A stretch of 64,000 nt of DNA, from the IMG/VR virus record IMGVR_UViG_3300021387_000147; one strand, written 5' to 3'. This stretch comes from a virus. Taxonomy: Duplodnaviria; Caudoviricetes. This document shows, piece by piece, positions 6,190-63,856 of this stretch (position 1 is its first letter; the number at the start of each line of letters is the position of its first letter). Below the pieces are notes generated by a model. That model was given only the letters and a program-made list of their open reading frames with translations, ran no database searches and was not told where the DNA came from. The position numbers and the translations under genes are program-made.

Positions 6190-6324
6190 TAACCTCTTTT
6201 TGATTACATAGTATAATATACAAAAAAATATGGGTCTCGGAAACCCATATTTATGTAAAATAACGTTTACAATTGTACATTACAAGGCCTTCAGGAGACC
6301 TTTTTATGTAAATTTTTGTTTACA
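6190..6324 (-). promoter_or_regulatory. boxed promoter cassette 1
   Basis: TGTAAA-N6-TTTACA at 6254 and 6307; GGG-TTTCCG-17-TATATT; AAAAAGAGG RBS. Confidence 0.85.
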
Positions 6325-6397
6325 ATTAGTCGTGGTGGCCCCAAATTAGGTACCCTATAAAAATTCCAAGTAAAAGTCCACCCATTTTTATTTCTCC

Positions 6398-7582
6398 TTA
6401 AAATGCGGCCTTAAAATTATAAACCGGTTTAATGATTTTTTCAATTGTCACAGTTGGCTCAATCAAAGAAACGATTTCTTCCATTGGCTTATATGCCATA
6501 GGACTTTCATCCACAGTAGCAGAACTAACACAAGTCGTGTAAATTCCCTTCATTGCTTCCTTATAGTCCTTCATAGAAATAGAATTCTTTGCATCTGCTC
6601 TTGTCATCAATCGACCAGCACCATGAGGAGCACTATAATTCCAATCAGGATTTCCCTTACCAACACAAATCAAAGAACCATCTCTCATATTCATTGGAAT
6701 AATGACACGTTCTCCTTCCTGTGCAGAAATGGAACCTTTTCTCAAAATCATATTCTTCAAATCAATGTAATTATGGATAGTTTCAAACTGTTCTGTCACC
6801 TTGAAACCCATTTCCTTAACAATTACATCCAACATTGCGGCTCTATTCTGTGATGCAAATCCTTGGACAATTTCCATATCATGCAAATAACCTTCCAAAT
6901 GTTCACCAGTTAAATAAGACAATTCCTTTGGAACACTGAAATGGTCATAGTCCTTTAACAATTCCTTGATTTCAGCATCAGTTTTGCCTTGATTTTTGTA
7001 TTGTGCCACAATTGCGCCACGTTCATCTGTGAGCTTAGCACAATCCTTAATCGCAATGTTCTGCCAGTATTCACAAACGGCTACTCCAAGATGACGAGAA
7101 CCGCTATGGATAACGACGTAGAACTTTCCTTCATCATCCTTGTCAACTTCGATGAAATGATTACCTCCGCCAAGCGAACCAATTGAAAGCAATTCCTCTC
7201 CACGAACATCTGCAATCAAATCATCCAAAGAAAAATCCTTTGCATAACGATGCTTATATTGTCTATGTTCCTTTCCAGATGGAATCTTTTCCTTAATTAC
7301 CTTATCAAGTTTACCAAATTCAATAAACTTGTCTTTGAGCTTTGCAACAAGCATTCCACAGCCAATATCTACACCTACAAGATTTGGAACAACTTTATTA
7401 GTAATAGTCATTGTCGTTCCAACTGTGCAACCTTTTCCAGCATGCACGTCAGGCATAATACGGACATTAGAATCCTTAGCCCAACACTGACACATCATAT
7501 TTAAAATCTGTGAATATGCTGCGTTATCAATATTATCTGTAAACACTTTTGCTGTGTTATATTTTCCTTGAATATCTAACAT
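6398..7582 (-). CDS. rtcB: RtcB-family RNA ligase
   Basis: MPDVHAGKG, VGVDIGCGM, GGGNHFIE, HSGSR, HNYID, SAPHGAGR motifs. Confidence 0.95.
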   Translation of the reverse strand: MLDIQGKYNTAKVFTDNIDNAAYSQILNMMCQCWAKDSNVRIMPDVHAGKGCTVGTTMTITNKVVPNLVGVDIGCGMLVAKLKDKFIEFGKLDKVIKEKIPSGKEHRQYKHRYAKDFSLDDLIADVRGEELLSIGSLGGGNHFIEVDKDDEGKFYVVIHSGSRHLGVAVCEYWQNIAIKDCAKLTDERGAIVAQYKNQGKTDAEIKELLKDYDHFSVPKELSYLTGEHLEGYLHDMEIVQGFASQNRAAMLDVIVKEMGFKVTEQFETIHNYIDLKNMILRKGSISAQEGERVIIPMNMRDGSLICVGKGNPDWNYSAPHGAGRLMTRADAKNSISMKDYKEAMKGIYTTCVSSATVDESPMAYKPMEEIVSLIEPTVTIEKIIKPVYNFKAAF

Positions 7583-7790
7583 AACTTACCTCAAAAGAAA
7601 ATTTCACAATTCTTTTCACGTTCTTCCATTTCTTTCATATCTTTCTTATGCTGTTCCATTTCTTTTTTATAACAGTCAAAACAAAGATACGCTTTCATTG
7701 CTGGTAGGCCACTACCATAATCTTCGATTATGAAACCTACAGCAGTCTTTTCATTGATTATGTGTTTTTTACAGTTATAACAAATCATTT

Positions 7791-8093
7791 TTACCTTATA
7801 CATTCTTTTCTTTCGATACGATAATGACCGTCATTTACGTAAGTGTATATTTCTTTATGACTCCATACGCCATAAGAATTATATGCACTTTTGACTACAA
7901 TCGTATCAGGTTCAAGTCTAATAAAGACTTCATCATCACAAACTGTTTTTGTTATTAGTTCCTTGTCATGATATATCCATGCTTGAACGCCTTTGCTTTC
8001 ACAACCGCTGAATATTCCAGCAATAAAAATCAAAAAACAAAGGAATCCAACAAAATAAATTGTAAATTTAGCTTCTTTGCTCAAGATATGCAT
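7791..8093 (-). CDS. putative lipoprotein or membrane protein
   Basis: Hydrophobic N-terminus ending FSGC. Confidence 0.55.
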   Translation of the reverse strand: MHILSKEAKFTIYFVGFLCFLIFIAGIFSGCESKGVQAWIYHDKELITKTVCDDEVFIRLEPDTIVVKSAYNSYGVWSHKEIYTYVNDGHYRIERKECIR

Positions 8094-8243
8094 CTCCTTT
8101 AGGACAACCTAACATTTTCTTTAATTTTTCATAACATTTTTTGCATCGATAAATCTTTTTCCAACCTTTATTTGGTTTATCTACCCATGCTTCTTTTGCT
8201 TCATTCTTATGAAGCTTTTGTTTGCAGTCATAACAAATAATCA

Positions 8244-8426
8244 TTAATCTTCCTTAACAAAGAAATGTTTGAAAATTCCAATTAAGATAGCAACTACGAT
8301 AAGGAAGATAACAAAGGCAACAGCAGCGTAAATAGCCGGTGCAGAAGCAACATAAATTCCTGTTGCTATATCTCCAGCATGTTGTGCCATCATAATCTGT
8401 GCCATTGTTGAAACTTCATTACCCAT
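8244..8426 (-). CDS. small membrane protein
   Basis: GAGG RBS; one TM segment. Confidence 0.65.
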   Translation of the reverse strand: MGNEVSTMAQIMMAQHAGDIATGIYVASAPAIYAAVAFVIFLIVVAILIGIFKHFFVKED

Positions 8427-8435
8427 AATTACCTC

Positions 8436-8759
8436 TTACTTAAGATAGATATTGGTATCATGACCTTTCTTTTCTACCTTAACCTTTTCATTTTCATACG
8501 TAAAATCTTCACCGCAACGCTTCTGACCATCAATTGTCCAACAATTATTACTGTCAACAATCGACTGAATTTGAGCAGGAGAATACAATCTTGCAGTTCC
8601 AGTCAGAACAAGAATGCCCATACCAATCAAGAAACCTGCAGCAGCGGAATCAAACCATCCACCAACTACACAGACCTGTTCGTTGCGAATGCAAACGCCG
8701 ATAATCTTGAGAAGAAGGCCGGTCACGCCAAGAATAAAACCAATGAGAATTACTGCCAT
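8436..8759 (-). CDS. membrane protein
   Basis: Two TM segments; AAGGA RBS. Confidence 0.65.
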   Translation of the reverse strand: MAVILIGFILGVTGLLLKIIGVCIRNEQVCVVGGWFDSAAAGFLIGMGILVLTGTARLYSPAQIQSIVDSNNCWTIDGQKRCGEDFTYENEKVKVEKKGHDTNIYLK

Positions 8760-10966: not shown

Positions 10967-11299
10967 TTAGTCGTTATAAGTGTAAGCACAACGATGAGCA
11001 GCGAGCTGTTCAATCAGCCAATCATGGAATTCTTCAAACGGAATTTCCTTTTCAGTGCGGTCAAAACCAGCATGCGAGCGAGAAGATACCCATTCAAATT
11101 CAACAATCTTGTCAGTAGACTTAACCTTCTGTCGCAAATCATGACCAAGATAAAGAATGACTGTGACGTTTTTCTTTTCATGCATTTCGCCAGCATATTC
11201 CACATTCTCAGTATAAACTTCTTCACTGATGCCGACAATCTTAGGAATGATTACGGTATCTTTTGAACCAGCTGGATGACGAACTTGGAACATTTGCAT
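10967..11299 (-). CDS. hypothetical early protein
   Basis: First gene after promoter cassette 2; GAGG RBS. Confidence 0.75.
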   Translation of the reverse strand: MQMFQVRHPAGSKDTVIIPKIVGISEEVYTENVEYAGEMHEKKNVTVILYLGHDLRQKVKSTDKIVEFEWVSSRSHAGFDRTEKEIPFEEFHDWLIEQLAAHRCAYTYND

Positions 11300-11304
11300 T
11301 GTTT

Positions 11305-11438
11305 TAACCTCTTTTATTTTAACAAGTAAAATATACTAAATTTGGAACTACTCGGAAACCCCTTTTTATGTAAAAAGAAGTTTACAATAGAGCCCAGAAT
11401 GGTCCCTGGAAGCCATTTTTTGTAAAATTTAGTTTACA
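11305..11438 (-). promoter_or_regulatory. boxed promoter cassette 2
   Basis: Boxes at 11369 and 11421; TTTCCG-17-TATATT; leader TTACTTGTTAAAATAAAAGAGG. Confidence 0.88.
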
Positions 11439-11472: not shown

Positions 11473-12114
11473 ATGAGTGAACCTAAATTGCCATCATGGA
11501 TGAATTATTCTGACTATGAAGATATTATGCATTATCTTCGTCTTTTTGGAGAAATAAAACCTTATTATTTGAAAGCTGAAGATGTATTTAATGCTGAACA
11601 AGAAGTCATGAAAAGAAAGATGGATGATGGTTTAAGACTTATTGACGTTGCTAAAGAAATGATTTGGAGCTATAAATATAAGGAAAGATGGCATCAATTA
11701 CCAAAGGATGAAAATATGGATTTAACAGAAGCAAAACAAGTATTAACAGACAATGGTTATCTGTTAAAAGAAAATACAAATGAATTGACTAAACAAGAAA
11801 AATATGCATTATTATACTTGTTATTAAAAGAACAAGGTGTAAAGTTAGTTGCAAATTTTAAAGATAGTGTAATTGATGACCAAGAAATTGATTTTGTTAT
11901 TGATAACAAATATCCAGCAAGTATCAAGAATGGTCAATTTGGTGGTATGAGTGATGATTTAGCTGATGATCCAGATACAATCTATTATGCAGTTTGGTTC
12001 TCTGATGATGAAGATGATTATAGAGAAGAAACCTATGATATAAACGAAATCATAGAATACGTTAAAGCTGGAAAATGGAATCAGTTCGTTAAAGAAGAAT
12101 TATTAAGTTGGTAA
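11473..12114 (+). CDS. hypothetical protein with internal MDLTEAKQVLTDNGY peptide
   Basis: AGGAG RBS; CATAAATA at 11450; peptide begins at ATG 11716. Confidence 0.75.
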   Translation: MSEPKLPSWMNYSDYEDIMHYLRLFGEIKPYYLKAEDVFNAEQEVMKRKMDDGLRLIDVAKEMIWSYKYKERWHQLPKDENMDLTEAKQVLTDNGYLLKENTNELTKQEKYALLYLLLKEQGVKLVANFKDSVIDDQEIDFVIDNKYPASIKNGQFGGMSDDLADDPDTIYYAVWFSDDEDDYREETYDINEIIEYVKAGKWNQFVKEELLSW

Positions 12115-12124
12115 GGAATAAAGT

Positions 12125-12673
12125 ATGAATTTAAATGAAGCAAAACAAATCCTAAAGAATGCTGGCTATATCATTGAAGATACTGAAACCAATGATGAAG
12201 AATATGATGCATTATATAATGAATGGGATAAAAAATGGGGTTCAGATCCAGCTATAAATACTCTTATTAAGAAAATGCATAAAGTTAGTAATAAGCGTAT
12301 GGATTTAAAAGATAAGATTGACAACGCAAAGAAGTTCAATTCTAATATTGATAGAATGAAGAAAGATGCAGTCAATATTTTCAAGCAAGCATTTCATGAA
12401 GATGAAGTGACTGACAATGGAGATGGTACGTATACAATAGTTCCTATGAGTGAATATGATATTGAAGCTATCTATAAGTGGGATGATAATGATACTTTGT
12501 CTTGTAAATTTAATTATTCAGACAATGTATTGACATTCAAGCATCTCAGCAAACACTTGAAATATGATCCTAAGGGTGGACCTTGGCAGGAAGGTCAATG
12601 GTCAGGCGATGAAGCACTTGAAAACTTCATTTCAGACTTGGCATTTGAATATCAAAATGCAATGAGTGTATAA
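12125..12673 (+). CDS. MNLNEAKQ-leader protein (putative internal head protein)
   Basis: N-terminal 18 aa shared with 12685 and nearly with 27449. Confidence 0.7.
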   Translation: MNLNEAKQILKNAGYIIEDTETNDEEYDALYNEWDKKWGSDPAINTLIKKMHKVSNKRMDLKDKIDNAKKFNSNIDRMKKDAVNIFKQAFHEDEVTDNGDGTYTIVPMSEYDIEAIYKWDDNDTLSCKFNYSDNVLTFKHLSKHLKYDPKGGPWQEGQWSGDEALENFISDLAFEYQNAMSV

Positions 12674-12684
12674 AAGGTTATAAT

Positions 12685-12969
12685 ATGAATTTAAATGAAG
12701 CAAAACAGATTTTAAAGAATGCTGGATATATCATTGAAAGATATGATCTTGACTATGATTCAGTAAATTCTTCTTTTGATGAAGAAAAACGTCTTGAAAA
12801 GTTTGGTGAATATCTATATGAAGTAAGAGAATTATTATATCGTAAAGGCTTCAGTAGAGGTAAACAAGCTGATAATTATGATGAATTACATGATATAGCA
12901 CATAGATGTTGTAGATTAGGTAAATCTATTGAAGACTGTGCTAAAGAAATAATTTTTACAATAAAATAA
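12685..12969 (+). CDS. MNLNEAKQ-leader protein (putative internal head protein)
   Basis: First 18 aa identical to 12125. Confidence 0.7.
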   Translation: MNLNEAKQILKNAGYIIERYDLDYDSVNSSFDEEKRLEKFGEYLYEVRELLYRKGFSRGKQADNYDELHDIAHRCCRLGKSIEDCAKEIIFTIK

Positions 12970-12970
12970 A

Positions 12971-12998
12971 AAGAGGACTTTTAGTCCTCTTATAAATA
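12971..12998 (+). terminator. hairpin immediately followed by TATAAATA late-type promoter
   Basis: AAGAGGACT-TTT-AGTCCTCTT then TATAAATA at 12991-12998. Confidence 0.65.
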
Positions 12999-13007
12999 TG
13001 GTTAGAT

Positions 13008-13763
13008 ATGAGTGAACGTGAAGAATATACAGCAGAAACATACCCAAGTTTTGGTAAGAAATATAACGGTGAAAAAGCTATCATTAGTTTAACATCTTGG
13101 AAAGCTCGCATAAATACAGTTTCAAAAACTCTGTATAGCCTATTAACACAGTGTCCTGGTTTTCATATAGTTCTTGTGTTATCAGAAGAAGAATTTCCAA
13201 AGAAAATGAATGCTTTACCTAAGAATTTAAAATTATTAGTTGATAATGAATTAATTGAAATTTTTTGGGTATATAAGAACTATAAAGCATTTAAAAAAGT
13301 TCTTTTTACAATGAATAAGTATAAAGACGTTCCAATTATTTCTGCAGATGATGATTTAATTTATATTAAAAATTATGCAGATTTTTTATATAATAAATGG
13401 AAAGTATTAAATACTTATTGCATAGGTTTATCATCATCATACTATAAAAAAACAAATAATTTATGGATAGCTGGATTATGGGGATATGCACAATTATTTC
13501 CACCACATTTTATAGATTATTTAGATTTTAATATAATAAAACAAATTACAAATTTAGGTTGCATTGATGATGATACATTTTATGATATTTATAGACAAAA
13601 ATTTAATATAAATGCATTTAGTTTTCAAATACAATTTAATAAAAATAATTTTATTATTAATAATAATGTTAATCAAAATAATTGTATTACAAATCAACGT
13701 ATAAATCATAAATTAAATGATAAAAAAATATATGAGGGTTTATTAAATGTTAATAATCGGTAA
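13008..13763 (+). CDS. GT-A fold glycosyltransferase
   Basis: IISLTSW..RI and IISADDDLIY (DxD) motifs. Confidence 0.75.
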   Translation: MSEREEYTAETYPSFGKKYNGEKAIISLTSWKARINTVSKTLYSLLTQCPGFHIVLVLSEEEFPKKMNALPKNLKLLVDNELIEIFWVYKNYKAFKKVLFTMNKYKDVPIISADDDLIYIKNYADFLYNKWKVLNTYCIGLSSSYYKKTNNLWIAGLWGYAQLFPPHFIDYLDFNIIKQITNLGCIDDDTFYDIYRQKFNINAFSFQIQFNKNNFIINNNVNQNNCITNQRINHKLNDKKIYEGLLNVNNR

Positions 13764-52978: not shown

Positions 52979-52979
52979 T

Positions 52980-53202: not shown

Positions 53203-53205
53203 ATT

Positions 53206-53409: not shown

Positions 53410-53652
53410 AACAATCTTCCCTCCTTAAAAAGAATAAAAGTTATAAAGCAGAATTACTTTATATCATTTATTGTTATGATTTGTTCTGATAACTTTTTAT
53501 CGTCATCATATACCATTTCATAAGAATGACATTTCAAATTATATTCTTCCAAAATCTGCTGAACTTCAGACAATGGCTTAAACATCATTTCTTCTGTCAA
53601 TTCTTGTGGAATTTCACGACTTGAATTATTGATTATTTTCACTTTCACCATA

Positions 53653-56107: not shown

Positions 56108-56700
56108 TCCTTTTATAAATTTTCTTCAATAATTTTTTCAGATATTTTGTCTAGTTTTTCTTCTACTTCAACCGCTTTTTCCTTTTCAGGCGTAATGCCA
56201 TCAATATCAAAACGGTCAAAATTTGTAATCATTCTTTTCAATTCTTCAACCGGGAATTTCGAAATCATTTCTCCAATTACCGGCTTTTTATTTTCTTCAG
56301 CCATAATTAACCATCAACTTCATATTCGTCCATCTGAACGTCGATATAAGTATCACCATTTCGTTCATCCTCATATCGCTGTTCTGCCTTTTCCTTATTA
56401 AGGTAAGTAGCAATGACAGACCTATCTCCACCAGAATATGGAATTATTCCAGTGATTTGATAAACTATATCATTCATTTTTTACCATCCAAAGTAATCTT
56501 TACAGAGCTTTTGTGCATAGCTCTTGGAATTCCAAGAAGCTGCGATTGAGCCGGGTCTCGGCATCATAATCGGCATGATGCTGTCAAAGTACTCAGCCAT
56601 CTTACGACCTTTCATATCATACTTTGTCTTCAGAACAGACTTAATTTCTTTTTCAAGGGATTTTGCAGTCATCATAGCCATATTTATATCTCCTTATAAA

Positions 56701-57105
56701 TTACTTAATTTCAGCTTCAAAGTGGATGAATTCACGAGCATAAGACCAATTCTTACCAGTCTTCACATCGACACACTGCCAAGGATAGCGCTTATTCCAA
56801 TCGAAGCCAACAATACGCATGTGCTTCGGACGACGATCGTCTGTCGGGAAAACCTTACCAAACGGATCCAAACCAGGAACACCGCACTTTGTCATTTCTT
56901 CATCAATCATCTGCTTTTCGAAGGGAGTCAACTTGCGAGAACCATCAGCGGCAAGTTCATGAAGGTCAATCTTGTAAGTCAGTCCTTTGTCATTAAAGGA
57001 ACAGGTTGCAGGAGTGACACACATATTGTGAGACTTAGCCCATTCAGCGATGAGAGTGTCGAGTTCATTGTGGAGGCGGACGCAAGTTTCTTTATTCATA
57101 TTCAA
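56701..57105 (-). CDS. hypothetical early protein
   Basis: First gene after promoter cassette 9. Confidence 0.75.
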   Translation of the reverse strand: MNMNKETCVRLHNELDTLIAEWAKSHNMCVTPATCSFNDKGLTYKIDLHELAADGSRKLTPFEKQMIDEEMTKCGVPGLDPFGKVFPTDDRRPKHMRIVGFDWNKRYPWQCVDVKTGKNWSYAREFIHFEAEIK

Positions 57106-57117
57106 TATCCTTTAGTA

Positions 57118-57229
57118 ATCTCTTTTATTTTAACAAGTAAAATATAAGTATATTTGGCTCATTTGGAAACCCTGTTTTATGTAAAAAAACGTTTACATTA
57201 ACCTCCAGATATGTAAAAAGGTGTTTACA
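57118..57229 (-). promoter_or_regulatory. boxed promoter cassette 9
   Basis: Boxes 57180 and 57212; TTTCCA-17-TATATT; conserved leader. Confidence 0.88.
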
Positions 57230-57433
57230 AAACACCTTCTATTTGACATTTTTTGACAGATTTTACATTAAAATCAATAAAACCATTTTGCGATATTAAG
57301 CACCCATACGAAAACGCTTCCGGCTCAGAGTCCCAATATTCTATATTTTCATCATCCGGATTTTCTGTAAATCTGCCATCTTTTAATGGATATGCAGTTC
57401 CATGAGGAAAATCAAATTCAACAGTAAATCGTT

Positions 57434-57952
57434 CTAACATAATACTCCTATTTTATCAATGAATTTATATTTTTTAGCTTCAGTAGCACTCATATAATAA
57501 TCTTTTGACATAAACTTATTAATATCTGACTTCTTTACTTTTCCATATTTGTTTAAAATATCAATCAATTTATCAGTCGCTATATTTATTTCTGCTCTTT
57601 CAATCGATTTATCCAAACCAGTTGGGTCATCATAATAAGGTTTATGTATCATAATTCTAACAGATGGATATGCATATCGATGGCCAGGTGAACCAGAGAA
57701 TAAAATAAAACTTGCCATAGAACTTGTAGAAATTCCTACAGTTGTGACATCAATTCCTTTTGATTTAGCATGTTCAATTAAATCTACAATAGCCAATCCT
57801 TCGTCAACATCTCCACCTACTGAATTCAAATATATTATAATTGGCTTACCTTCATTAATAAATTCACAAAGTTGTTTAACATATTTGGCTCCCGATTTCT
57901 GAGTAATTTCCTCATTGATCCAAAGTCTATTTACGTCAATTTCTTTCTTCAT
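57434..57952 (-). CDS. clpP: ClpP-family protease
   Basis: YLNSVGGDV, SSMAS, MIHKP, D.YMSATEA..Y..IDKI. Confidence 0.88.
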   Translation of the reverse strand: MKKEIDVNRLWINEEITQKSGAKYVKQLCEFINEGKPIIIYLNSVGGDVDEGLAIVDLIEHAKSKGIDVTTVGISTSSMASFILFSGSPGHRYAYPSVRIMIHKPYYDDPTGLDKSIERAEINIATDKLIDILNKYGKVKKSDINKFMSKDYYMSATEAKKYKFIDKIGVLC

Positions 57953-57955
57953 CTT

Positions 57956-58001
57956 TACCTCTAAAGGTAAATGTAATAAAAATTTTTACAATTGTCAACC
58001 C
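57956..58001 (-). promoter_or_regulatory. sigma70 promoter of clpP
   Basis: GGG-TTGACA(57993-98)-17-TACATT(57970-75); GAGG RBS. Confidence 0.75.
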
Positions 58002-58063
58002 AGACCACACGATAAAAGTCTCAACTTCTGTTGAGACACTATCTTTATTTGGATGAATTCCAA

Positions 58064-58324
58064 TTATTGTTTTGTAATAATGAAAGCCCAGCCTTCAGTA
58101 TTAAACATATAACGGTGGCCATCCAAGGTTTCCATTACAATCGTATGAGAACCAATTGTATAAGTTTTAGCCTGATATTCTACACAAGAAGATGCTTCAG
58201 GACATCCAATTGGACATACTTTAATTGGCGTATATGATCCATTACGTGTTTGAACTTGTTTGTCACCACATTCATCACATCCAAATAAACAGAATGCAAT
58301 CAATAATAAAAGTATCTTTTTCAT
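58064..58324 (-). CDS. putative lipoprotein
   Basis: MKKILLLLIAFCLFGC lipobox; start moved to 58324. Confidence 0.7.
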   Translation of the reverse strand: MKKILLLLIAFCLFGCDECGDKQVQTRNGSYTPIKVCPIGCPEASSCVEYQAKTYTIGSHTIVMETLDGHRYMFNTEGWAFIITKQ

Positions 58325-58328
58325 GTTT

Positions 58329-58697
58329 TTATTCCTTCCAATAGCCATAAAATCTGGCAAAATCATTTATATGATCTGATATGTTTCCTTTATAGTCGTA
58401 TTTTCCTTGACAACCATCTTCTAATTCTCTTATCCAGTTCATTTCACAATGCATGTTGTAAATCATTTTATCATACTTTTCCAACTGGTCATTGTAATAT
58501 TGCAATTCAGCTGGTAAACGACCTAATTTATTCAATGATACAGACAACATTGCAGGGTTAATTTGATTCTTCTCAAAATAGAGCTTTTTACGGATAATAA
58601 ACTCACAACGCTCTTTTTCTAGAGTAGAAATCTGAGCCATTGTCAGCATTTTCCATTTTTCTATTAGAATTCTATTATAGTCTGGATAATTCAACAT
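58329..58697 (-). CDS. hypothetical protein
   Basis: Coupled ORF. Confidence 0.65.
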   Translation of the reverse strand: MLNYPDYNRILIEKWKMLTMAQISTLEKERCEFIIRKKLYFEKNQINPAMLSVSLNKLGRLPAELQYYNDQLEKYDKMIYNMHCEMNWIRELEDGCQGKYDYKGNISDHINDFARFYGYWKE

Positions 58698-59257
58698 TAC
58701 TTACATTTATCCTTAATACAGAAATCAACTAAACTTTCTGCAGTATTTTCTCTTGTGCATTTCTTAATGCATTTAATAAATTCTTCTTTACTACCTTGAA
58801 TTTGAACTTCTTCTACAGGTTTTGTTGGCACAATCTTTGTAATAGAATCCAACTTCTTTTCATATTCAGCAAGTAATTCTTGTTTTAACTTTTCTGTATC
58901 AACATTTGAAACTGTCTGCTGAACAACAGGCTTTGGCTGTTCAATAGGCTTTGGTTGTTCTGCGGCTTTCTTTGCTCTCTTTTCTACTCTATATTCTGTG
59001 ACAAGTTTCCATGCCCTTTCATGATTGTTTAAACACCTTTCCATGTTTACTGTGCAAAGACTATCAAGAACATTTATCTTGCATTTGCCAGGATGTGCAT
59101 AACACATATCTTTATAAATTTCAGGTGTTTCAACATAACAACGGTCACCTTTTGATTCACAAATCATATTAAAAAGCTTAGGTACTGCAACAGCGGCAAG
59201 AATGCCCATGATTACAATTACGACCATCAATTCAATTAAAGTAAATCCTTTTTTCAT
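58697..59257 (-). CDS. type IV pilin-like protein (prepilin N-methylation motif)
   Basis: MKKG-FTLIELMVVIVIMGILAAVAVP, then a Cys-rich body. Confidence 0.9.
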   Translation of the reverse strand: MKKGFTLIELMVVIVIMGILAAVAVPKLFNMICESKGDRCYVETPEIYKDMCYAHPGKCKINVLDSLCTVNMERCLNNHERAWKLVTEYRVEKRAKKAAEQPKPIEQPKPVVQQTVSNVDTEKLKQELLAEYEKKLDSITKIVPTKPVEEVQIQGSKEEFIKCIKKCTRENTAESLVDFCIKDKCK

Positions 59258-59730
59258 TCGTCACCTTCCTTAATTAAAACTACCCATTCTCCAGAACAAG
59301 TTATATGACCTTCCTTTTTAGTAGATGGAGTTATCTTTCCATGACATCCAACAGAATACCAGAGAGGATTGTCAAATGTAGTTCCCCATGTAGCCATTCC
59401 AATTTCAAGTCCTGAACTAATTTGTCTCTTCAAATAAATTGGATAACCTACGCCAAATAATTCCAATGCAGGTCTTCCATGTTCAGGAACTCCATCTGTT
59501 GTAATTTTTCTCTTATCAATGACAAGTGAATCAATTAAAGCACCTTCACACTTTGGAAGATTATACGTTTCAAATGAGTTGCTAACGTATACCGTGTCAT
59601 GAACTACAACCTTCTTGACTTTCTGCCTTGTCTGTGTTGAGTCTTTTTCTGTTCCACTTCCAATGAACATGCCACCCAATCCAGCGAGCATAAACAAGAT
59701 AGTCAGAATAAGTACCTTTTTAAAATCCAT
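59254..59730 (-). CDS. membrane-anchored protein, paralog of 59730
   Basis: N-terminal TM; VHDTVY; CSGEWVVLIK. Confidence 0.7.
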   Translation of the reverse strand: MDFKKVLILTILFMLAGLGGMFIGSGTEKDSTQTRQKVKKVVVHDTVYVSNSFETYNLPKCEGALIDSLVIDKRKITTDGVPEHGRPALELFGVGYPIYLKRQISSGLEIGMATWGTTFDNPLWYSVGCHGKITPSTKKEGHITCSGEWVVLIKEGDE

Positions 59731-60173
59731 TATCTTTTTCCTTTGATTTTAATTATCCATTCACCTGCACATTCAGAATAAGTATCACTATCAGGGTCAT
59801 CTTCATCGTATGGAATGTCATACATTTTTCCATTACAAAGAATTGCATATTCTTCGACACTATCTACATCGAATGTTCCATCAGCAAATTGAACTGAAAT
59901 GGCAGTAGTACCCTTATGTGTCTCCAGCGTATCCAGACGCGCTCCAAATGCGTTAGAATAAGAGACAGCGTTTATATACTGGATTCGCTTAACTTCTTTA
60001 TAAAGCGTATCATGGACGAATGTGGTATCTCTTACAACAGTCACAAGAGTGTCCATTTTCTTCATTGAAGTTTCATAACATTCATCAATCTTCTTAAGAA
60101 TTGTATTTGAAAAGACAATGATAGCAACAAAGATCGCTGCGAATAAAATTATATGTTGATATTTAACGTCCAT
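59730..60173 (-). CDS. membrane-anchored protein, paralog of 59254
   Basis: N-terminal TM; VHDTLY; CAGEWIIKIK. Confidence 0.7.
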   Translation of the reverse strand: MDVKYQHIILFAAIFVAIIVFSNTILKKIDECYETSMKKMDTLVTVVRDTTFVHDTLYKEVKRIQYINAVSYSNAFGARLDTLETHKGTTAISVQFADGTFDVDSVEEYAILCNGKMYDIPYDEDDPDSDTYSECAGEWIIKIKGKR

Positions 60174-60514
60174 TATTTAAGCCTTCTACAGTTTTCTCTG
60201 ATACAAAAATCAATTACAGATGAAGAAACATTATTTGCCTTGCATTCAGCTACACATTCATCAAATTCATTATCTTCTTTTACAGGTTCCTCAATAGGTT
60301 CTTCAACATGTGTATTGACTGGCTGAGGTGCAACTACCGGCTTATCTCTAAAAACAAGTGGTTCATCTCTAAATACCATTGGTTCACTTGGAACAGATGG
60401 AGCTGGTTTTACTGGAGTAGTTTCTTGTTTCTTTTTGCACGTACCACAAAAACAACATGGACCAGCGAAAACAAATGATGCAGTAAGAGTTAAGATTAAA
60501 AATAGTTTCTTCAT
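60173..60514 (-). CDS. secreted Cys-rich protein
   Basis: Signal peptide, Pro-rich linker, CVAEC...IDFCIRENC. Confidence 0.75.
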   Translation of the reverse strand: MKKLFLILTLTASFVFAGPCCFCGTCKKKQETTPVKPAPSVPSEPMVFRDEPLVFRDKPVVAPQPVNTHVEEPIEEPVKEDNEFDECVAECKANNVSSSVIDFCIRENCRRLK

Positions 60515-60587
60515 TTGTAATTCCTTTGTTAAAAAGAAAAAGCCCTATCAAAGTTTTTCAACAATGTAGGGCTTTCAAAGATTTTAA

Positions 60588-61862
60588 TTACTTATTGGAC
60601 AACTTAGAAGTCAAATCCATAAGCATGTTCAGACCAACAGCGTCCATAGCATTGCTTGCGCCATTCTTACCATCACCACCAGTCATCATGATTTCTGGTA
60701 CAAGTGGGTGAGAGGACTTAGCAAGAGCTTCTGCAACACCAACCTTAGTCTTATATTCCCATTCAGCACGTTCCTGAGGAGTCAAACCTGCAGCGACCAA
60801 TGCTCTATTAGCCTGAGCTTCTGCTTCCTTTTCAGCCTTAATCTTCTTAGCAACTTCAATTGCCTTTAGAGCTTCAAGACGAGCAACTTCCTTTTCACGT
60901 TCAGCATTCAAAATAGCAACTGCCTTTTCCTTTTCAGCCATAGTCACTTCAGTCATCTTCTGAACTTCCTGAGTAGCCTTAGCTTCTGCAATCTTTGCAT
61001 CACCTTCAGCCTTTGCAGTAATAGCCTTCTGCTTAGCAGTTTCTGCTGCGGTTGCATTTGCTACACGCTGCATTTCACGTTCCTTAACAATATCCAACTG
61101 TTGCTGAGCCTTAGGATCCAACTTTACGTTCTGAATTTCCAACTGCTTTACAACAATACCATACTGAGTAATTGGAGACTTCTTAGTGATAATTCGATGA
61201 CCATCCTTATCTAGCTTCAGCTTAGTAACACGGTATTCCTGAACTTCAGCCTTCTTAACGACCTTACCAGTGGAATCAACTTCATCTTCGCCAGCCTTTT
61301 CCTTAAGTACTTCAATTGTGGTCAAGTATTCACCTTCAACGAGCTGGTCTTCAGCAAGACGACGGAATTCTGCAATCTTTGTAACCTTTGCTTCTTCAGC
61401 GGTAAACAATGGAGCGGTCTTACGAACTGCAGAGAGAACAGCATTTCGAACTAGATTATGCTTTACACCCTTATCACTACGCTGGTTCTTATGAAGTTCA
61501 ATCAACTTATCACAGTCGGTTGGAAGCTCATACATAAGATAACCAGAAATATCTGCGTTTGCATTTCGAGATAGCGTTACAGAAATGTCATCTTCATCAT
61601 CTTCATCGCCTTCCCAACCTTCACCGTTCACCTTTTCATTAGAACTATTGAAATAGAAGGACTTTGCGAGGTCATACTTATAGATGGATGCGAAGCCCTT
61701 GAAATAAAGACCCTGACCCTCTACGCATGACAGCGTTCCGAATGGAGACTGCTTAATGAGCAATTCAGTTGACTGCTTATAGCCCACCATCTTTCCAGCG
61801 AAAATGCCAAGAAGAATGAGCACGATTACGGCAAGAATGCCGAGAACTTGTGTCTTTGTCAT
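60588..61862 (-). CDS. SPFH/Band 7 family membrane protein
   Basis: N-terminal TM, SPFH-like region, AEA-rich coiled coil, LTPQERAEW...VA..LA...VP. Confidence 0.8.
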   Translation of the reverse strand: MTKTQVLGILAVIVLILLGIFAGKMVGYKQSTELLIKQSPFGTLSCVEGQGLYFKGFASIYKYDLAKSFYFNSSNEKVNGEGWEGDEDDEDDISVTLSRNANADISGYLMYELPTDCDKLIELHKNQRSDKGVKHNLVRNAVLSAVRKTAPLFTAEEAKVTKIAEFRRLAEDQLVEGEYLTTIEVLKEKAGEDEVDSTGKVVKKAEVQEYRVTKLKLDKDGHRIITKKSPITQYGIVVKQLEIQNVKLDPKAQQQLDIVKEREMQRVANATAAETAKQKAITAKAEGDAKIAEAKATQEVQKMTEVTMAEKEKAVAILNAEREKEVARLEALKAIEVAKKIKAEKEAEAQANRALVAAGLTPQERAEWEYKTKVGVAEALAKSSHPLVPEIMMTGGDGKNGASNAMDAVGLNMLMDLTSKLSNK

Positions 61863-61897
61863 ATTATGTTTTTCCTTTTTTGTTTATTGTTTGATTT

Positions 61898-62245
61898 TTA
61901 GTTTAAGTTTGTTGTTTCGTTAACTTCTGTTACCTTATATGCAGGTTCACCCCACATTTCCCAATTACGTCTCCACTTTTCACATTCAAGTTCAGATTGC
62001 TTGAAAATTTTAGTATCGACGAAATTACATACTGAATGCGCTACTGCATTTACTGCCTTTTCAGTTACTCTAGGATTAGGATCAGCCTTTACCTCAGGGA
62101 GAATCTTTGAGAACTGTTTAAGCATCCAAAGAACTGGAATTCCGATTACTTTGTAGACAAAGCGACCTACATAAAGTGCAATGCCGTACAGAGTAAGAAA
62201 TAAACCAAATCCACCTACGTTAATTCTTGTTACAATCTTATTCAT
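61898..62245 (-). CDS. membrane-associated hypothetical protein
   Basis: Hydrophobic N-terminal half; GAGG RBS. Confidence 0.65.
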   Translation of the reverse strand: MNKIVTRINVGGFGLFLTLYGIALYVGRFVYKVIGIPVLWMLKQFSKILPEVKADPNPRVTEKAVNAVAHSVCNFVDTKIFKQSELECEKWRRNWEMWGEPAYKVTEVNETTNLN

Positions 62246-62720
62246 TTGTCTTTACCTCTGAATATTCAATCCATTTACATGTATATCCATATATCATATC
62301 AGCTTTTGGCCAAACGTCAGTAAGTGTAAATGTTCCAAGCGTATCTGGAAGTTTAGCCTTTGCATTCCTTGGACAAACAATCCACATGATAGATACTTTG
62401 TTTTCAACTACTCCATCATAAGAGAAACTGTCATACCAACAATTTGCGAATTCCTTCTTGTCCTTAATTGAAGACCATGCCTTAAATGCAGACTTTGAAT
62501 CGCATTCATCTGGACGAGTGATTTCTCGAATTACTGGCGGAACATTTGTTGAATCATCGTATACAATATCATTCAATGCCTTTTTAGAATTCGTTTCCTT
62601 TTCCATATTGCATACATAAACAGCAGAAGCGAGAACTAAAATTCCAAAAATAACAATAAAAGCCTTAAGAAAGAATGACTTGATTTCAGCTTTTGTTTTT
62701 TCATACTGCATCATAGTCAC
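62238..62720 (-). CDS. membrane-anchored hypothetical protein
   Basis: N-terminal TM; AGGAG RBS. Confidence 0.7.
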   Translation of the reverse strand: MTMMQYEKTKAEIKSFFLKAFIVIFGILVLASAVYVCNMEKETNSKKALNDIVYDDSTNVPPVIREITRPDECDSKSAFKAWSSIKDKKEFANCWYDSFSYDGVVENKVSIMWIVCPRNAKAKLPDTLGTFTLTDVWPKADMIYGYTCKWIEYSEVKTNE

Positions 62721-62723
62721 TCC

Positions 62724-63449
62724 TTACTTCATATCCGGCACATAAAGGATAGTCGGGTTGTCCTTATGCACATCAAGCATTTTCATGTTCTTAAGAGTTG
62801 CAGACTTTTCCCAGAGTTGCTGGAAAGTCAGCTTATTGAACGGCTTGCACACGATATGCTTACCACTCTTAGTCGGCACAACGAAAAATTCAGACTTGAC
62901 AGCATTGCGTGCTTCTTCCGCACTGAGTCCAAGGTCACGATATGCCTGAATTCGCTTATCATACGGCTGACAATCCAAAATCATTTCCTTGATTTCTTCT
63001 TCGTAAGGCAGATATTCCTTATCGAGGTCGACAATCCAAGTCTTGTCCTTTCCTGCCTGGCAACACTCGCCACATGCAGAAGCAACAAGATGGAATGGAG
63101 AAGAATAAGTTTCGCCAGATGCACACTGTTCAGCAATGTGCTTCATCATTTCAAGTGCAATGTTCTTGTAATTACGCTTATTGAGGCGGATATATGCTCG
63201 CACATTGAACATATTGCAAAGCGCAATAATATCTTCCTTCACATCTTCAAGGTGCTCAGGGGACTTAATCAGATAGTCCTTAATAGAGCGAGAGTGCATA
63301 TTGCCATGATACTTCGGATCCTTAACACCATTCTTCAGAGGATCATCAGCCTGACGGCGAAGAAGCTGAACGTAGTAGCAATCGCCATGGTCACGGTCAA
63401 TCATCTGCTTTTCAATGTAGTTCTTGATGAGTTCGAAGTTATCAACCAT
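62724..63449 (-). CDS. phage protein with AEP (primase-like) motifs
   Basis: WIVDLD (DxD) and TKSGKH motifs. Confidence 0.55.
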   Translation of the reverse strand: MVDNFELIKNYIEKQMIDRDHGDCYYVQLLRRQADDPLKNGVKDPKYHGNMHSRSIKDYLIKSPEHLEDVKEDIIALCNMFNVRAYIRLNKRNYKNIALEMMKHIAEQCASGETYSSPFHLVASACGECCQAGKDKTWIVDLDKEYLPYEEEIKEMILDCQPYDKRIQAYRDLGLSAEEARNAVKSEFFVVPTKSGKHIVCKPFNKLTFQQLWEKSATLKNMKMLDVHKDNPTILYVPDMK

Positions 63450-63456
63450 TCTTAAA

Positions 63457-63541
63457 TTCCTCTTTAATTTCTTTTAACAAGTAAAATGTAGTTAATTTTT
63501 GCTGTTTTGTCAACCCTTAGTTTTGTAAAACTTTTTTTACA
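63457..63541 (-). promoter_or_regulatory. boxed promoter cassette 10
   Basis: Box 63524; TTGACA-17-TACATT; TTACTTGTTAAAA leader. Confidence 0.85.
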
Positions 63542-63728
63542 GTTTCTTATGGGTATTTCCGGCGATAATCAAATCGGCAAGCGGAGAAATAACAGCAATC
63601 TGATAGAGCATATTAGGCCAACGCTTTTTCATATTGTCAATAAAATGGACGGCAGTGAAAATATCGTCAGCAGTATTGAACTGAGTTATGGCTCCGTCCA
63701 GAATTTGGTATTTGATTTGAAAGTGCAT
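63537..63728 (-). CDS. single small gene between two promoter cassettes
   Basis: GAGG RBS; stop codon inside box 63524. Confidence 0.7.
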   Translation of the reverse strand: MHFQIKYQILDGAITQFNTADDIFTAVHFIDNMKKRWPNMLYQIAVISPLADLIIAGNTHKKL

Positions 63729-63734
63729 TGTTTG

Positions 63735-63856
63735 ACCTCTTTTATTTTAACAAGTAAAATATACCAAAAAAGAAGGGTCTTGGAAACCCTTCTTTTTGTA
63801 AAATTATGTTTACAATAGCCAATTTTTTGGCTTTTTTATGTAAATTTTTGTTTACT
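63735..63856 (-). promoter_or_regulatory. boxed promoter cassette 11
   Basis: Boxes 63797 and 63839 (1 mismatch); TTTCCA-17-TATATT; AGAAGGGT/ACCCTTCT hairpin over the -35. Confidence 0.88.

Follow-up and report, generated by a model that had tools for sequence, protein, structure and literature searches.

Phased palindromes, putative operators, at the promoter cassettes of a T4-like megaphage from the ruminant gut

The window analyzed here, a 64,000-nt stretch of DNA, derives from a T4-like megaphage from the ruminant gut. The lineage is deep-branching, with a size of ~400 kb and a polymerase only ~32% identical to known T4-like phages. On the minus strand, 11 promoter cassettes carry an 18-bp palindrome, TGTAAA-N6-TTTACA (core GTAAA-N6-TTTACA), here called the box. 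In 10 of the 11, the box is followed by 10 nt, a sigma70-type -35, 17 nt, and a -10; at 51545, the gap is 9 nt. Our re-measurement thus reproduced the layout given by an earlier sequence-only reading of this DNA. The cassettes, with the first gene of each, are as follows.

Cassette 1, 6186-6324, minus strand: proximal box 6254-6271, distal box 6307-6324 (53 bp apart); -35 TTTCCG 6238-6243; -10 TATATT 6215-6220; leader 29 nt; first gene 5682-6185 (minus, 167 aa, ORFan)
Cassette 2, 11300-11438, minus strand: proximal box 11369-11386, distal box 11421-11438 (52 bp apart); -35 TTTCCG 11353-11358; -10 11330-11335; first gene 10967-11299 (minus, 110 aa)
Cassette 3, 35429-35513, minus strand: one box 35496-35513; -35 TTACCA 35480-35485; -10 35457-35462; first gene 35171-35428 (minus, 85 aa)
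Cassette 4, 39818-39955, minus strand: proximal box 39885-39902, distal box 39938-39955 (AGTAAA..., one mismatch); -35 TTAACA 39869-39874; -10 39846-39851; first gene 39578-39817 (minus, 79 aa)
Cassette 5, 43853-44012, minus strand: proximal box 43922-43939, distal box 43995-44012 (73 bp apart); -35 TTGACA 43906-43911; -10 43883-43888; first gene 43589-43852 (minus, 87 aa)
Cassette 6, 48665-48749, minus strand: one box 48732-48749; -35 TTTACA 48716-48721; -10 48693-48698; first gene 47996-48664 (minus, 222 aa)
Cassette 7, 51472-51562, minus strand: one box 51545-51562 (CGTAAA..., one mismatch), gap 9 nt; -35 TTGACA 51530-51535; -10 TATAAT 51507-51512; first gene 50827-51471 (minus, 214 aa)
Cassette 8, 52979-53092, minus strand: proximal box 53043-53060, distal box 53075-53092 (32 bp apart); -35 TTACCA 53027-53032; -10 53004-53009; first gene 52631-52978 (minus, 115 aa)
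Cassette 9, 57100-57229, minus strand: proximal box 57180-57197, distal box 57212-57229 (32 bp apart); -35 TTTCCA 57164-57169; -10 57141-57146; leader 41 nt; first gene 56701-57099 (minus, 132 aa)
Cassette 10, 63450-63541, minus strand: one box 63524-63541; -35 TTGACA 63508-63513; -10 TACATT 63485-63490; first gene 62724-63449 (minus, 241 aa, phrog_14949, function unknown)
Cassette 11, 63729-63856, minus strand: proximal box 63797-63814, distal box 63839-63856 (AGTAAA..., one mismatch; 42 bp apart); -35 TTTCCA 63781-63786; -10 63758-63763; first gene 63537-63728 (minus, 63 aa)

The promoters serve ORFans rather than genes for aromatic amino acids, and a 27-nt string comprising the -10 and leader is identical in five cassettes. 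Several boxes also provide the TAA stop of the upstream gene: the distal box of cassette 4 for 39951-40505, the box of cassette 6 for a TupA-like ATP-grasp gene (48745-49596), the distal box of cassette 9 for 57225-57440, and the box of cassette 10 for 63537-63728. Cassette 2 stands back to back with a plus-strand island beginning at 11473.

A motif scan of the whole window, which the sequence-only reading had suggested as a check, recovered its 15 perfect copies at the same coordinates, compared to 0.01 expected from shuffles. With up to one mismatch allowed, there were 20 matches (0.78 expected), comprising the 18 sites listed earlier, three one-mismatch copies among them, plus 35677 and 36115. 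These last two both lie within ORF 35629-36246 and look like chance. All 18 sites mark gene boundaries upstream of minus-strand genes, and are intergenic or reach no further than the final codons of the gene upstream; ORFs cover ~96% of the window. The promoter-side arm TTTACA is invariant in 18/18 boxes, and the sole change in the one-mismatch copies is the outermost upstream base.

Many cassettes also contain terminator hairpins. The 10 nt ending in GGG and the weak -35 are present as previously described, but in the cassettes at 6254, 48732, and 63797 they form the stem and loop of a hairpin (A-run, stem, loop, stem, T-run) of -11.5 to -17.1 kcal/mol. The -35 of cassettes 1, 6, and 11 sits in the hairpin loop (-12.2, -11.5, and -17.1 kcal/mol, respectively), followed by a T-run. 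Further hairpins lie between the boxes of cassettes 1 and 2, with a small one in cassette 11, and terminators occupy this position in cassettes 4 (-11.9 kcal/mol) and 5 (-18.2 kcal/mol). As the box is transcribed only from upstream promoters, and lies just 5' of a terminator hairpin in many cassettes, it might instead work at the RNA level, forming a small 3'-terminal hairpin on read-through transcripts of the upstream block as a signal for processing, stability, or termination. We think this very improbable: the box hairpin is very weak (-2.5 to -3.7 kcal/mol), the stem never covaries, the arms are invariant while the N6 varies, spacing to the -35 is fixed even in the eight cassettes without a hairpin there, and bacterial copies (see below) lie ahead of where tRNA-Glu and RNase P RNA begin.

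The sequence-only reading had tied the box to a weak -35. Within the window, this association is visible: 8 of the 11 boxed promoters depart from the consensus -35, compared to none of the four box-less promoters, where the -35 is TTGACA (starting at 57998, 32818, 26882, and 2019; hand-computed one-sided Fisher p ~0.03). In relatives, however, boxed promoters have the consensus TTGACA, so the link does not generalize, and the argument for activation that it offered fails there.

Over 100 related viral contigs carry the conserved palindrome, some of them complete genomes of ~420 kb; in two complete relatives of ~420 kb and in three large fragments, 5-25 boxes were counted per sequence, compared to 0 for controls. 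In the relative G001, 20 perfect boxes were found, as opposed to 0 with the reversed control, and 19 of its 24 consensus promoters are boxed, with a gap of exactly 19 nt in 14, where the gap sequences are unrelated, and of 9-10 nt in 4. Among 127 unique IMG/VR cassettes, found by a search that allowed 8-22 nt and not fully independent observations as the cassettes are related, the gap is 9-10 nt in 33, 18-21 nt in 88, and 11-17 nt in 3. Matches in species-representative genomes again gave this bimodality. The box centre is thus placed 22 or 31 bp upstream of the -35 centre, two or three helical turns (about -54.5 and -63.5 relative to the start), with a 9-bp step between the two positions that is somewhat below one turn. 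Spacings between boxes peak at 32, 42/43, and 52/53 bp and are phased (Rayleigh p ~0.003, 10.5-bp period, phase 0). A bimodal gap despite unrelated gap sequences is the signature of a protein on one helix face, and these patterns support the box as a candidate site for a dimeric DNA-binding factor in a fixed promoter register. Hence, of the earlier proposal of a dimeric factor centred near -54, the fixed register, now joined by clade-wide conservation and the bimodal gap, holds up, but the -35 argument is confined to the window phage.

Comparison with strain variants showed gene blocks lost or swapped exactly at the cassettes. A deletion in one variant ends at 11309, inside cassette 2. Variant L344 has gene 38727-39080 fused to the leader of cassette 4 and lacks the two genes in 39250-39817; in variant L348, the cassette 7 promoter is joined straight to the box array of cassette 8, with the three intervening genes missing. 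At cassette 8, contigs from four RNA runs diverge from 52975 downwards, directly at the start codon, and at cassette 9 variant sequence or indels start at 57063 and 57111. Being repeated, the cassettes also serve as the joints where strains lose or trade gene blocks. The palindrome might therefore need no transcription factor, and persist as part of a mobile or recombinogenic module, where it would offer a patch of homology or be targeted by a phage nuclease or recombinase, with its spacing inherited. Variant end points that fall in cassettes, one of them within a box array, would fit this, as would the homing-endonuclease family present in the window and the record of the early promoter/stem-loop (PeSL) cassettes of T4-like phages as recombination joints (PMC2839356, PMC4122927). 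We nevertheless consider this unlikely. The 19-nt gaps of G001 are equal in length but unrelated in sequence, and the 127 cassettes use only two gap classes one helical turn apart, which argues for selection on geometry, not descent. Furthermore, distal boxes retain perfect arms although all surrounding sequence differs, and the box is also found at non-mobile bacterial promoters.

We searched for a phage gene that could encode the factor. No regulator family appeared among the best 25 Pfam/PHROGs families listed for the 150 window ORFs and 263 G001 ORFs. Across five relatives (two complete genomes and three large fragments), Ogr_Delta, HTH_8, and Sigma70_r4 had no match, and HTH_3 matched in only one. 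A phage-encoded factor, of novel fold or packaged in the virion, could nonetheless use the box to time the cassettes, for instance as an early product that shuts the promoters off, or by looping the upstream box to a TGTAAA-like half-site at the start site. Most phage ORFs lack a family, so that a new DNA-binding protein could hide there, and box density (15 in 64 kb of the window, 20 in 133 kb of G001) is far above that of any bacterium searched. Looping repression would also suit the TGT(A/T)AA half-site that 65 of 215 cassettes have 5-6 nt downstream of the -10, a place where the opposite arm never occurs. We judge a phage origin possible but rather doubtful: HTH_3, HTH_8, Ogr_Delta, and sigma region 4 are not conserved across the complete relatives, a centre at -54 or -63 would be unusual for a simple repressor, and a phage factor alone leaves unexplained the conserved boxes on bacterial chromosomes.

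Those boxes emerged from a host-side motif scan, also suggested by the sequence-only reading. The box-plus-promoter pattern was found in 108 of 401 Gastranaerophilales genomes, compared to 16 control matches. Three other gut groups showed no enrichment of this kind: Lachnospirales (6/121), a small-genome Bacilli order (4/100), and Succinivibrionaceae (4/80). In three Gastranaerophilales MAGs, the chromosomal tRNA-Glu gene is preceded by the box, 19 or 20 nt, TTGACA, 17 nt, and TATATT, and orthologous box families also precede RNase P RNA, a pilin-like gene, and a small, probably non-coding transcript. Distances to the putative -35 are many in bacteria (6, 9, 12, 16-17, 19-20, 22, and 27 nt); at one orthologous promoter, two genomes have a 9-nt gap and a third has 20 nt. 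The regulon is small, and in one complete genome the 10-base core was not enriched genome-wide (9 compared to 10 in the control). The shared motif is what makes Gastranaerophilales a candidate host, GroEL identity being uninformative and a search for CRISPR-like matches having found none. Phage contigs were binned into MAGs of many labels (Rickettsiales, Clostridia, Bacilli, Bacteroidaceae, and Succinivibrionaceae). These bacterial boxes, the terminator hairpins, and the recombination role are three features absent from the earlier reading.

That reading had equated the palindrome with the TyrR box, and the sequence is indeed identical to the consensus, G-N14-C pair included. A gammaproteobacterial host such as a rumen Succinivibrionaceae member could thus supply TyrR to activate the phage promoters, as TyrR does from boxes integral helical turns upstream of the -35 via the alpha C-terminal domain (PMC4374768), and some phage contigs were binned in a MAG labelled Succinivibrionaceae. 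We give this little credence. The binning labels are inconsistent, the 80 Succinivibrionaceae genomes showed no box-plus-promoter excess, and no TyrR-type or Fis-type HTH was found in the complete phage relatives or the candidate host group. The targets are ORFans, and no box accompanies the phage gene for chorismate mutase (17541-17825). Moreover, natural TyrR regulons combine strong and weak boxes (PMC4374768), whereas 15 of the 18 boxes here match the consensus perfectly.

Taken together, we somewhat favor PeSL-type cassettes in which the palindrome is a putative operator for a dimeric, probably host-encoded, class-I-like factor. Each cassette comprises a terminator for the upstream block, a sigma70-type promoter, presumably early, a conserved leader that is A-rich and has a strong Shine-Dalgarno, and the gene that opens the next ORFan block. 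A sequence-specific dimeric protein would bind the palindrome. With centres two or three turns from the -35, it would share a helix face with RNA polymerase, in the position from which class I activators contact the alpha C-terminal domain, and may activate rather than repress. Extra upstream boxes, which tend to lie whole helical turns away, could let the protein bind cooperatively over the terminator in between. The host would most likely supply the factor, since the searches of the phage genomes yielded no regulator family and Gastranaerophilales promoters conserve the identical palindrome.

Parts of this arrangement recur in known systems. The TyrR boxes of Enterobacteria share their consensus and G-N14-C pair with ours; a TyrR dimer binds each box, neighbouring boxes are used cooperatively, and activation proceeds from boxes three or four helical turns upstream of the -35 centre via the RNA polymerase alpha C-terminal domain (PMC4374768). 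The present boxes differ in lying at two and three turns, in being nearly all perfect, and in serving ORFans.

The dyad of P2 late promoters is positioned near -55, and our box, which contains TGT-N12-ACA centred near -54.5, matches it. In the P2 Ogr and P4 Delta late promoters, the TGT-N12-ACA dyad lies upstream of a poor -35 and is read by a small activator via RNA polymerase alpha (PMC3931495). Unlike these, the present cassettes have 6-bp invariant arms and resemble early, PeSL-type promoters, not those of late structural operons. CRP activates as a class I factor at -61.5 and further whole turns, and Fis with the UP element stimulates stable-RNA promoters. As at such promoters, only positions on one helix face are tolerated, the site can move by one turn, an A-tract adjoins the -35, and bacterial boxes precede tRNA-Glu and RNase P RNA. 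However, the half-site sequence and 18-bp span differ from CRP (16 bp) and the Fis consensus, and -54.5 and -63.5 are not canonical CRP positions. The HLR1 element of cyanobacteria, bound by RpaB, has the half-site (G/T)TTACA(T/A)(T/A), spans 18 bp like our box, and activates when centred at ~-51 (range -66 to -45) (PMC6525291); the candidate host Gastranaerophilales belongs to the same, cyanobacterial, phylum. HLR1 consists of direct repeats 2 nt apart (PMC6525291), whereas the present element is an inverted repeat.

The closest likeness, already drawn by the sequence-only reading and borne out by the shared layout, hairpins, and strain rearrangements ending in cassettes, is to the PeSL cassettes of T4-like phages. 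As described by Arbiol et al. 2010 (PMC2839356) and Comeau et al. 2014 (PMC4122927), these are, like ours, intergenic composite units between ORFans. In both, an upstream stop codon in an AT-rich stretch precedes a sigma70-like -35/-10 with a 17-nt spacer, a stem-loop or terminator may overlap the -35, and a Shine-Dalgarno and start codon follow; both occur in many copies, at which the insertions, deletions, and replacements that distinguish close strains begin or end. For the upstream region, the passages of those papers compared here mention AT-richness only and no fixed palindromic operator, whereas the cassettes described here have an invariant 18-bp palindrome that takes either of two positions equivalent on the helix, and another copy in phase with it is often present. 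This palindrome, on top of a PeSL-like architecture, is the new part.

Perfect copies of the 18-bp palindrome TGTAAA-N6-TTTACA, hereafter the box, occur 15 times in the 64-kb window, against 0.01 in dinucleotide-preserving shuffles. When one mismatch was allowed, 20 sites were found where 0.78 were expected; 18 of these are the sites listed in the sequence-only reading, and the two extra one-mismatch sites (35677 and 36115) lie inside ORF 35629-36246 and fit chance expectation. The counts, sites, and layout of that reading (15 perfect and three one-mismatch boxes in 11 cassettes) proved accurate, as did its placement of boxes at gene boundaries: all 18 are intergenic or reach no further than the end of the gene upstream, and ORFs cover ~96% of the window. 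The cassettes, numbered 1 to 11 or named by the start of the proximal box (6254, 11369, 35496, 39885, 43922, 48732, 51545, 53043, 57180, 63524, and 63797), are composite units read on the minus strand in the order optional distal box, proximal box, 10 nt, -35-like hexamer, 17-nt spacer, -10, leader, Shine-Dalgarno sequence, and ATG. The gap between box and -35 is A-rich, ends in GGG, and measures 10 nt, but 9 nt at 51545. All 11 cassettes conform to TTnnC(A/G), N17, TA(T/C)A(T/A)T, a leader of 25-41 nt, a GAGG-type Shine-Dalgarno sequence, and ATG, with TATATT as the -10 apart from one TATAAT and one TACATT, and five carry identical copies of a 27-nt string comprising the -10 and leader. The first gene after every cassette is an ORFan.

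Within the box, a G-N14-C pair is kept in 18 of 18 copies, and the change in the three imperfect copies is confined to the outermost upstream base, leaving the promoter-side arm TTTACA invariant. A consistent asymmetry, TGTAAAC ... TTTTACA, means that the box is oriented one way relative to the promoter. In five cassettes (boxes 39938, 48732, 51545, 57212, and 63524), the upstream gene takes its stop codon from the TAA of the outer arm (xGTAAA), and at box 43995, the stop codon falls within the N6 spacer, so that the cassettes abut the upstream ORF without any spacer. Distances between boxes in the window are 32, 32, 42, 52, 53, 53, and 73 bp. Our recount agreed with the earlier description of the -35 elements: TTGACA is absent from eight of the 11 boxed promoters and present in all four box-less promoters of the same strand (-35 at 57998, 32818, 26882, and 2019; one-sided Fisher p ~0.03, by hand calculation). 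The dyad centre, placed earlier near -54, lies at about -54.5 if transcription starts 7 nt after the -10. For the plus-strand gene block that begins at 11473, a promoter with the TTTACA arm of box 11421 in the role of -35 (TTTACA-N17-TAATAT) was considered and found unconvincing, as its start would fall inside the Shine-Dalgarno sequence.

The palindrome is conserved across a clade of related phages. G001, a 132.6-kb IMG/VR contig that has one cassette-driven gene in common with the window at 78% protein identity, holds 20 perfect boxes versus none for a reversed control, and 19 of its 24 consensus promoters are boxed. This contig encodes a T4-type replisome (gp43-like polymerase, gp32, UvsX, and UvsW) and GroEL, and its polymerase is ~32% identical to those of T4-like cyanophages. 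Motif searching also retrieved two relatives whose genomes are complete, 419 and 422 kb long, and carry terminal repeats. In the 419-kb genome (G004), 10 of 14 perfect boxes lie in 385-419 kb and 0-3 kb, adjoining the terminal repeat, a distribution suggesting a terminal region for early or host-takeover functions, marked by the boxed cassettes, by analogy with T5- or SPO1-like phages.

Across these relatives, the palindrome stands in two helically equivalent registers. In G001, 14 cassettes have exactly 19 nt between box and -35, with unrelated gap sequences, four have 9-10 nt, and one has 21 nt; the -35 is consensus TTGACA, and the majority of these elements sit inside a stem-loop followed by a T-run. 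An IMG/VR search for the composite pattern with any gap of 8-22 nt retrieved more than 114 stretches. Of 127 unique cassettes, 33 have a gap of 9-10 nt and 88 one of 18-21 nt, and just three fall at 11-17 nt; 121 of 127 thus occupy the helically equivalent positions that characterize class I activator sites. A stricter pattern in species-representative genomes gave 19-20 nt in 45 cases, 9-10 nt in 11, and other values in five (56 of 61 in the two classes). The box centre is accordingly 22 or 31 bp from the -35 centre, two or three helical turns, or at about -54.5 or -63.5 with a start 7 nt after the -10. A protein that has to face RNA polymerase would be expected to keep the length but not the sequence and to allow a jump of one turn; simple descent of a repeat predicts neither. 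Second boxes tend to lie at whole helical turns: in 33 unique pairs, spacings peak at 32, 42/43, and 52/53 bp (Rayleigh p ~0.003 for a 10.5-bp period, phase 0), although exceptions make this a tendency and not a rule. Several cassettes of the form box, 19/20 nt, TTGACA, N17, TATATT are also present on contigs of 44-49% G+C labelled Bacteroidaceae and Prevotella (L266, L283, L306 [JAFXNA010000009.1, 101 kb], and L272). These contigs do not resemble the window at the nucleotide level, so the design of cassette plus operator reaches relatives of higher G+C. A scan of viral contigs with a 14-base extended box gave scattered single matches only, which we took as noise.

This arrangement suggests a mechanism. 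A dimeric protein, probably of helix-turn-helix type, would bind the box with half-site centres 12 bp apart and, from -54.5 or -63.5, would touch RNA polymerase in a class I or TyrR-like manner via the alpha C-terminal domain, through which TyrR itself activates (PMC4374768). Extra phased boxes could give cooperative occupancy across the terminator of the cassette. The factor may already be in the uninfected cell, in which case the cassettes would fire immediately. The interpretation in the sequence-only reading, a dimeric factor that activates or times a set of early genes, is partly supported. If one factor reads all cassettes, it would be a master switch for host-takeover genes in a widespread family of ~400-kb gut megaphages that has no cultured member.

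The box might instead be read by a phage-encoded factor, and repression or timed shut-off by a phage product is possible. In 65 of 215 cassettes, the -10 is followed at 5-6 nt by a TGT(A/T)AA half-site (47 of them TGTAAA; for example, in the leader at window 11316-11329), which is always oriented like the upstream arm and never takes the form of the opposite one. It could be initial transcribed sequence or start-site context, or an auxiliary half-operator, and a half-site at the start site would fit a repression loop with the upstream box. Our searches for a phage-encoded reader gave little. Among the matches listed (the best 25 families per set) for 413 ORFs, 150 from the window and 263 from G001, Pfam and PHROGs showed no regulator family. 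Ogr_Delta (PF04606), HTH_8 (the Fis/TyrR type), and Sigma70_r4 had no match in five relatives (G001 and G003-G006), two of them complete genomes, and HTH_3 matched in only one of the five, G003. The small zinc-ribbon ORFs of the window (7591-7803, 8068-8244, and 16361-16573) did not match PF04606. Matches of the cassettes' first genes all stayed below threshold (for instance, 17.8 bits for MerR-DNA-bind and 17.5 bits for H-NS_N) and were not trusted.

The window itself is ~31% G+C, with nearly all genes on one strand, and encodes RtcB, a CCA-adding enzyme, an Rnl1-type RNA ligase, NAPRTase-family proteins, a Clp protease, chorismate mutase, and a pilin-like protein. Genes for RNA repair or tRNA maintenance (RtcB ligase, CCA-adding enzyme, Rnl1-type RNA ligase, and a polynucleotide kinase family match) and for NAD salvage (two NAPRTase-family proteins and NUDIX) are interspersed with ORFan blocks (6398-7582, 33609-34865, 44686-45885, and 54998-56107). 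Megablast of 10 kb of the window against cultured phage records found no match and no close cultured relative; near-identical DNA was found in sheep-gut metagenomes and metatranscriptomes. Three further features are listed here.

Individual features of the window

11473-14283, plus strand: five-ORF block, the sole plus-strand block; ~25% G+C, reversed GC skew; bounded by cassette 2

17541-17825, minus strand: chorismate mutase type II, 94 aa (Pfam CM_2, E 2.6e-18); early region; no box ahead

58697-59257, minus strand: type IV pilin-like protein with an N_methyl motif (MKKGFTLIELMVV...)

The plus-strand block looks like an inserted module. A chorismate mutase gene (86 aa) is also present in the relative G005; we see no link between this enzyme and the TyrR-like palindrome and regard the pair as a curious coincidence. 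Around the pilin-like gene (58675-59341), summed contig depth reached 340-845 in three of four RNA-library runs versus ~5-30 in neighbouring bins, which may reflect very high expression or cross-mapping of pilin genes from other organisms.

We then turn to boxes in bacteria. Matches to the strict composite pattern in bacterial genomes were mostly phage contigs binned into metagenome-assembled genomes (MAGs), whose labels are contradictory (Rickettsiales, Clostridia, Bacilli, Coprovivens, Succinivibrionaceae, and Bacteroidaceae) and therefore uninformative on the host. Several species-representative "bacterial" MAGs (loci L259-L315) consist largely of contigs of the window phage's clade, examples being "uncultured Rickettsiales bacterium SRR8387716_bin.52," "Clostridia bacterium T1900044540...," "Bacillota bacterium Tb.RUG.116," and "Ca. 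Coprovivens sp. PUUB64_bin.034"; the taxonomic labels of such phage-rich MAGs are probably artefacts of megaphage binning. Chromosomal copies were found in three MAGs of the Gastranaerophilales (Melainabacteria), where a box, 19-20 nt, and TTGACA-N17-TATATT precede a tRNA-Glu gene divergent from mutS, and the box is conserved more than its flanks. The same three genomes have three to six boxes each at orthologous intergenic sites, and two of them have a 9-nt gap at an orthologous promoter where the third has 20 nt. A search for the box plus a generic promoter, alongside a control, gave the following counts.

Genomes with a box plus generic promoter, by bacterial group

Gastranaerophilales: 108 of 401 genomes; 16 control hits

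Lachnospirales: 6 of 121 genomes; 3 control hits

Small-genome Bacilli order: 4 of 100 genomes; 5 control hits (in 4 genomes)

Succinivibrionaceae: 4 of 80 genomes; 1 control hit

Plain boxes numbered 76 in 41 Gastranaerophilales genomes versus 31 control hits. The 108 genomes yield several orthologous families of boxed promoters, among which one precedes RNase P RNA (Rfam, 229 bits) and another a type IV pilin-like gene. The commonest family (~25 genomes; loci L318, L322, L326, and L336) has the form box, 9 nt, TTGnnn, N17, TATGAT and precedes a short conserved transcript, probably non-coding, with neither a conserved ORF nor an Rfam match, which may be an undescribed small RNA. Boxes in this order stand at several distances from the putative -35, and the regulon is small; the 10-base core GTAAA-N6-TTTAC showed no genome-wide enrichment in one complete Gastranaerophilales genome. 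Copies of the box are thus found at conserved bacterial promoters, and by sequence, a bacterial regulon with the box as its predicted operator exists in Gastranaerophilales. Because of these conserved promoters, a host-encoded factor together with a Gastranaerophilales host is the most economical reading.

Host evidence independent of the box was sought and not found. BLAST of 20 kb against the 401 Gastranaerophilales genomes found no spacer-like match, its hits being weak similarities at gene level and short stretches of low complexity; the GroEL of G001 is 53-58% identical to Gastranaerophilales and Lachnospirales proteins alike; and the N-terminus of the pilin-like protein was set aside as generic sequence. 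To our knowledge, no phage has been isolated for Gastranaerophilales. A fuller scenario, which we offer tentatively and consider rather doubtful, is that the ~400-kb T4-like clade infects Gastranaerophilales, its early promoters copying the operator of host tRNA-Glu and RNase P RNA genes, so that an undescribed host factor is recruited at once to dozens of cassettes. If this were true, the operator would serve to assign hosts across an entire clade of uncultured megaphages, and it would offer a way to find a new global regulator in a bacterial class about which little is known. The box at Gastranaerophilales promoters gives a testable host prediction, and its 18 bp offer a route to the candidate bacterial regulator via DNA-affinity capture.

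Folding revealed a further layer in the cassettes. At 6254, 48732, and 63797, the GGG and weak -35 form the 5' stem and loop of a hairpin with the order A-run, stem, loop, stem, T-run, which has the shape of an intrinsic terminator and whose T-run is the promoter spacer; these -35-enclosing hairpins have predicted energies of -12.2, -11.5, and -17.1 kcal/mol, respectively. Cassette 11369 has no -35 hairpin (-3.8 kcal/mol). Between paired boxes, a hairpin of -7 to -18 kcal/mol was found in five cassettes, and the box alone as an RNA hairpin reaches only -2.5 kcal/mol. The tally leaves aside cassettes 35496, 51545, 53043, and 57180, which were not folded or for which none is shown.

Recombination occurs at the cassettes. 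The window was compared with ~90%-identical contigs of other samples. On one of these (L348), the distal-box flank of cassette 8 is joined via a three-box array to the promoter of cassette 7, and the three intervening genes (51558-52978) are missing; on another (L344), gene 38727-39080, two ORFs on, has become joined to the leader of cassette 4, and two genes are missing. Other breaks lie at 11309, 57063, and 57111. Assembled contigs of four metatranscriptome runs were compared with window 44001-64000: in all four, contigs depart from the window precisely where the first gene of cassette 8 has its start codon (break at 52975), and in two, at the corresponding codon behind cassette 9. Where contigs end at cassettes, the simplest explanation is that assembly broke at a repeat, and "joints" between cassettes with short sides (20-24 nt) were left out as unusable. 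Away from any cassette, at 54225-54551, contigs of all four RNA-library runs lack 325 bp and have 2 nt instead, which removes ORF 54219-54527 (102 aa), a whole-gene indel polymorphism.

Finally, we compared the cassettes with known systems. The sites of cre, GlnR/TnrA (17 bp), Rex, CRP/NtcA (span 16 bp), WalR, and the LacI family differ from the box in span or repeat orientation. The HLR1 element of RpaB has a half-site, an 18-bp length, and an activating position in common with the phage box but, unlike it, is a direct repeat. Promoters dependent on P2 Ogr have a dyad near -55; the TGT-N12-ACA dyad ~55 bp upstream and the poor -35 of the Ogr/P4 Delta type recur here (-35 weak in eight of 11), and no zinc-finger activator of that family (PF04606) was matched in five relatives. 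The TyrR box is TGTAAA-N6-TTTACA with an essential G-N14-C pair (PMC4374768). The phage box is identical to it in sequence, with a TyrR- and class I-like geometry. The TyrR regulon, however, comprises aromatic amino acid genes with mixed strong and weak boxes, whereas the phage boxes are almost all perfect and serve ORFans, the sole aromatic-pathway gene (17541-17825) being box-less. The TyrR-type HTH (TIGR04381) had no match in five Gastranaerophilales genomes, with a positive Escherichia coli control. The likeness to TyrR drawn earlier stands as sequence only, and membership in the TyrR regulon is not supported. The other likeness drawn there, to the promoter-early stem-loop cassettes (PeSLs) of T4-like phages, holds at the sequence level. 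In two papers (PMC2839356, PMC4122927), PeSLs are repeated intergenic units that combine a strong sigma70-like early promoter in AT-rich context with a stem-loop terminator lying between the -35 and -10 or overlapping them, and they flank the ORFans of hyperplastic regions and mediate modular shuffling. Working promoters and terminators and the formation of mini-circles also belong to the PeSL type. Our cassettes have a sigma70-like promoter in AT-rich intergenic context with a Shine-Dalgarno sequence and start codon, and a stem-loop in or near the promoter at variable position that may overlap the -35; they lie between ORFans of a T4-like genome, as judged from the G001 replisome genes and the ORFan first genes, and they are end points of indels and replacements among close phages. 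By every sequence-level feature, the window cassettes are PeSLs. Cassettes of this type are already known as promoters, terminators, and recombination joints of T4-like plastic regions; an invariant built-in operator with a helical-phase rule is not known to have been part of that picture. What is new here is PeSL cassettes with a dedicated, phase-locked candidate operator, and the computed evidence gives leads on both a host factor and a host group.
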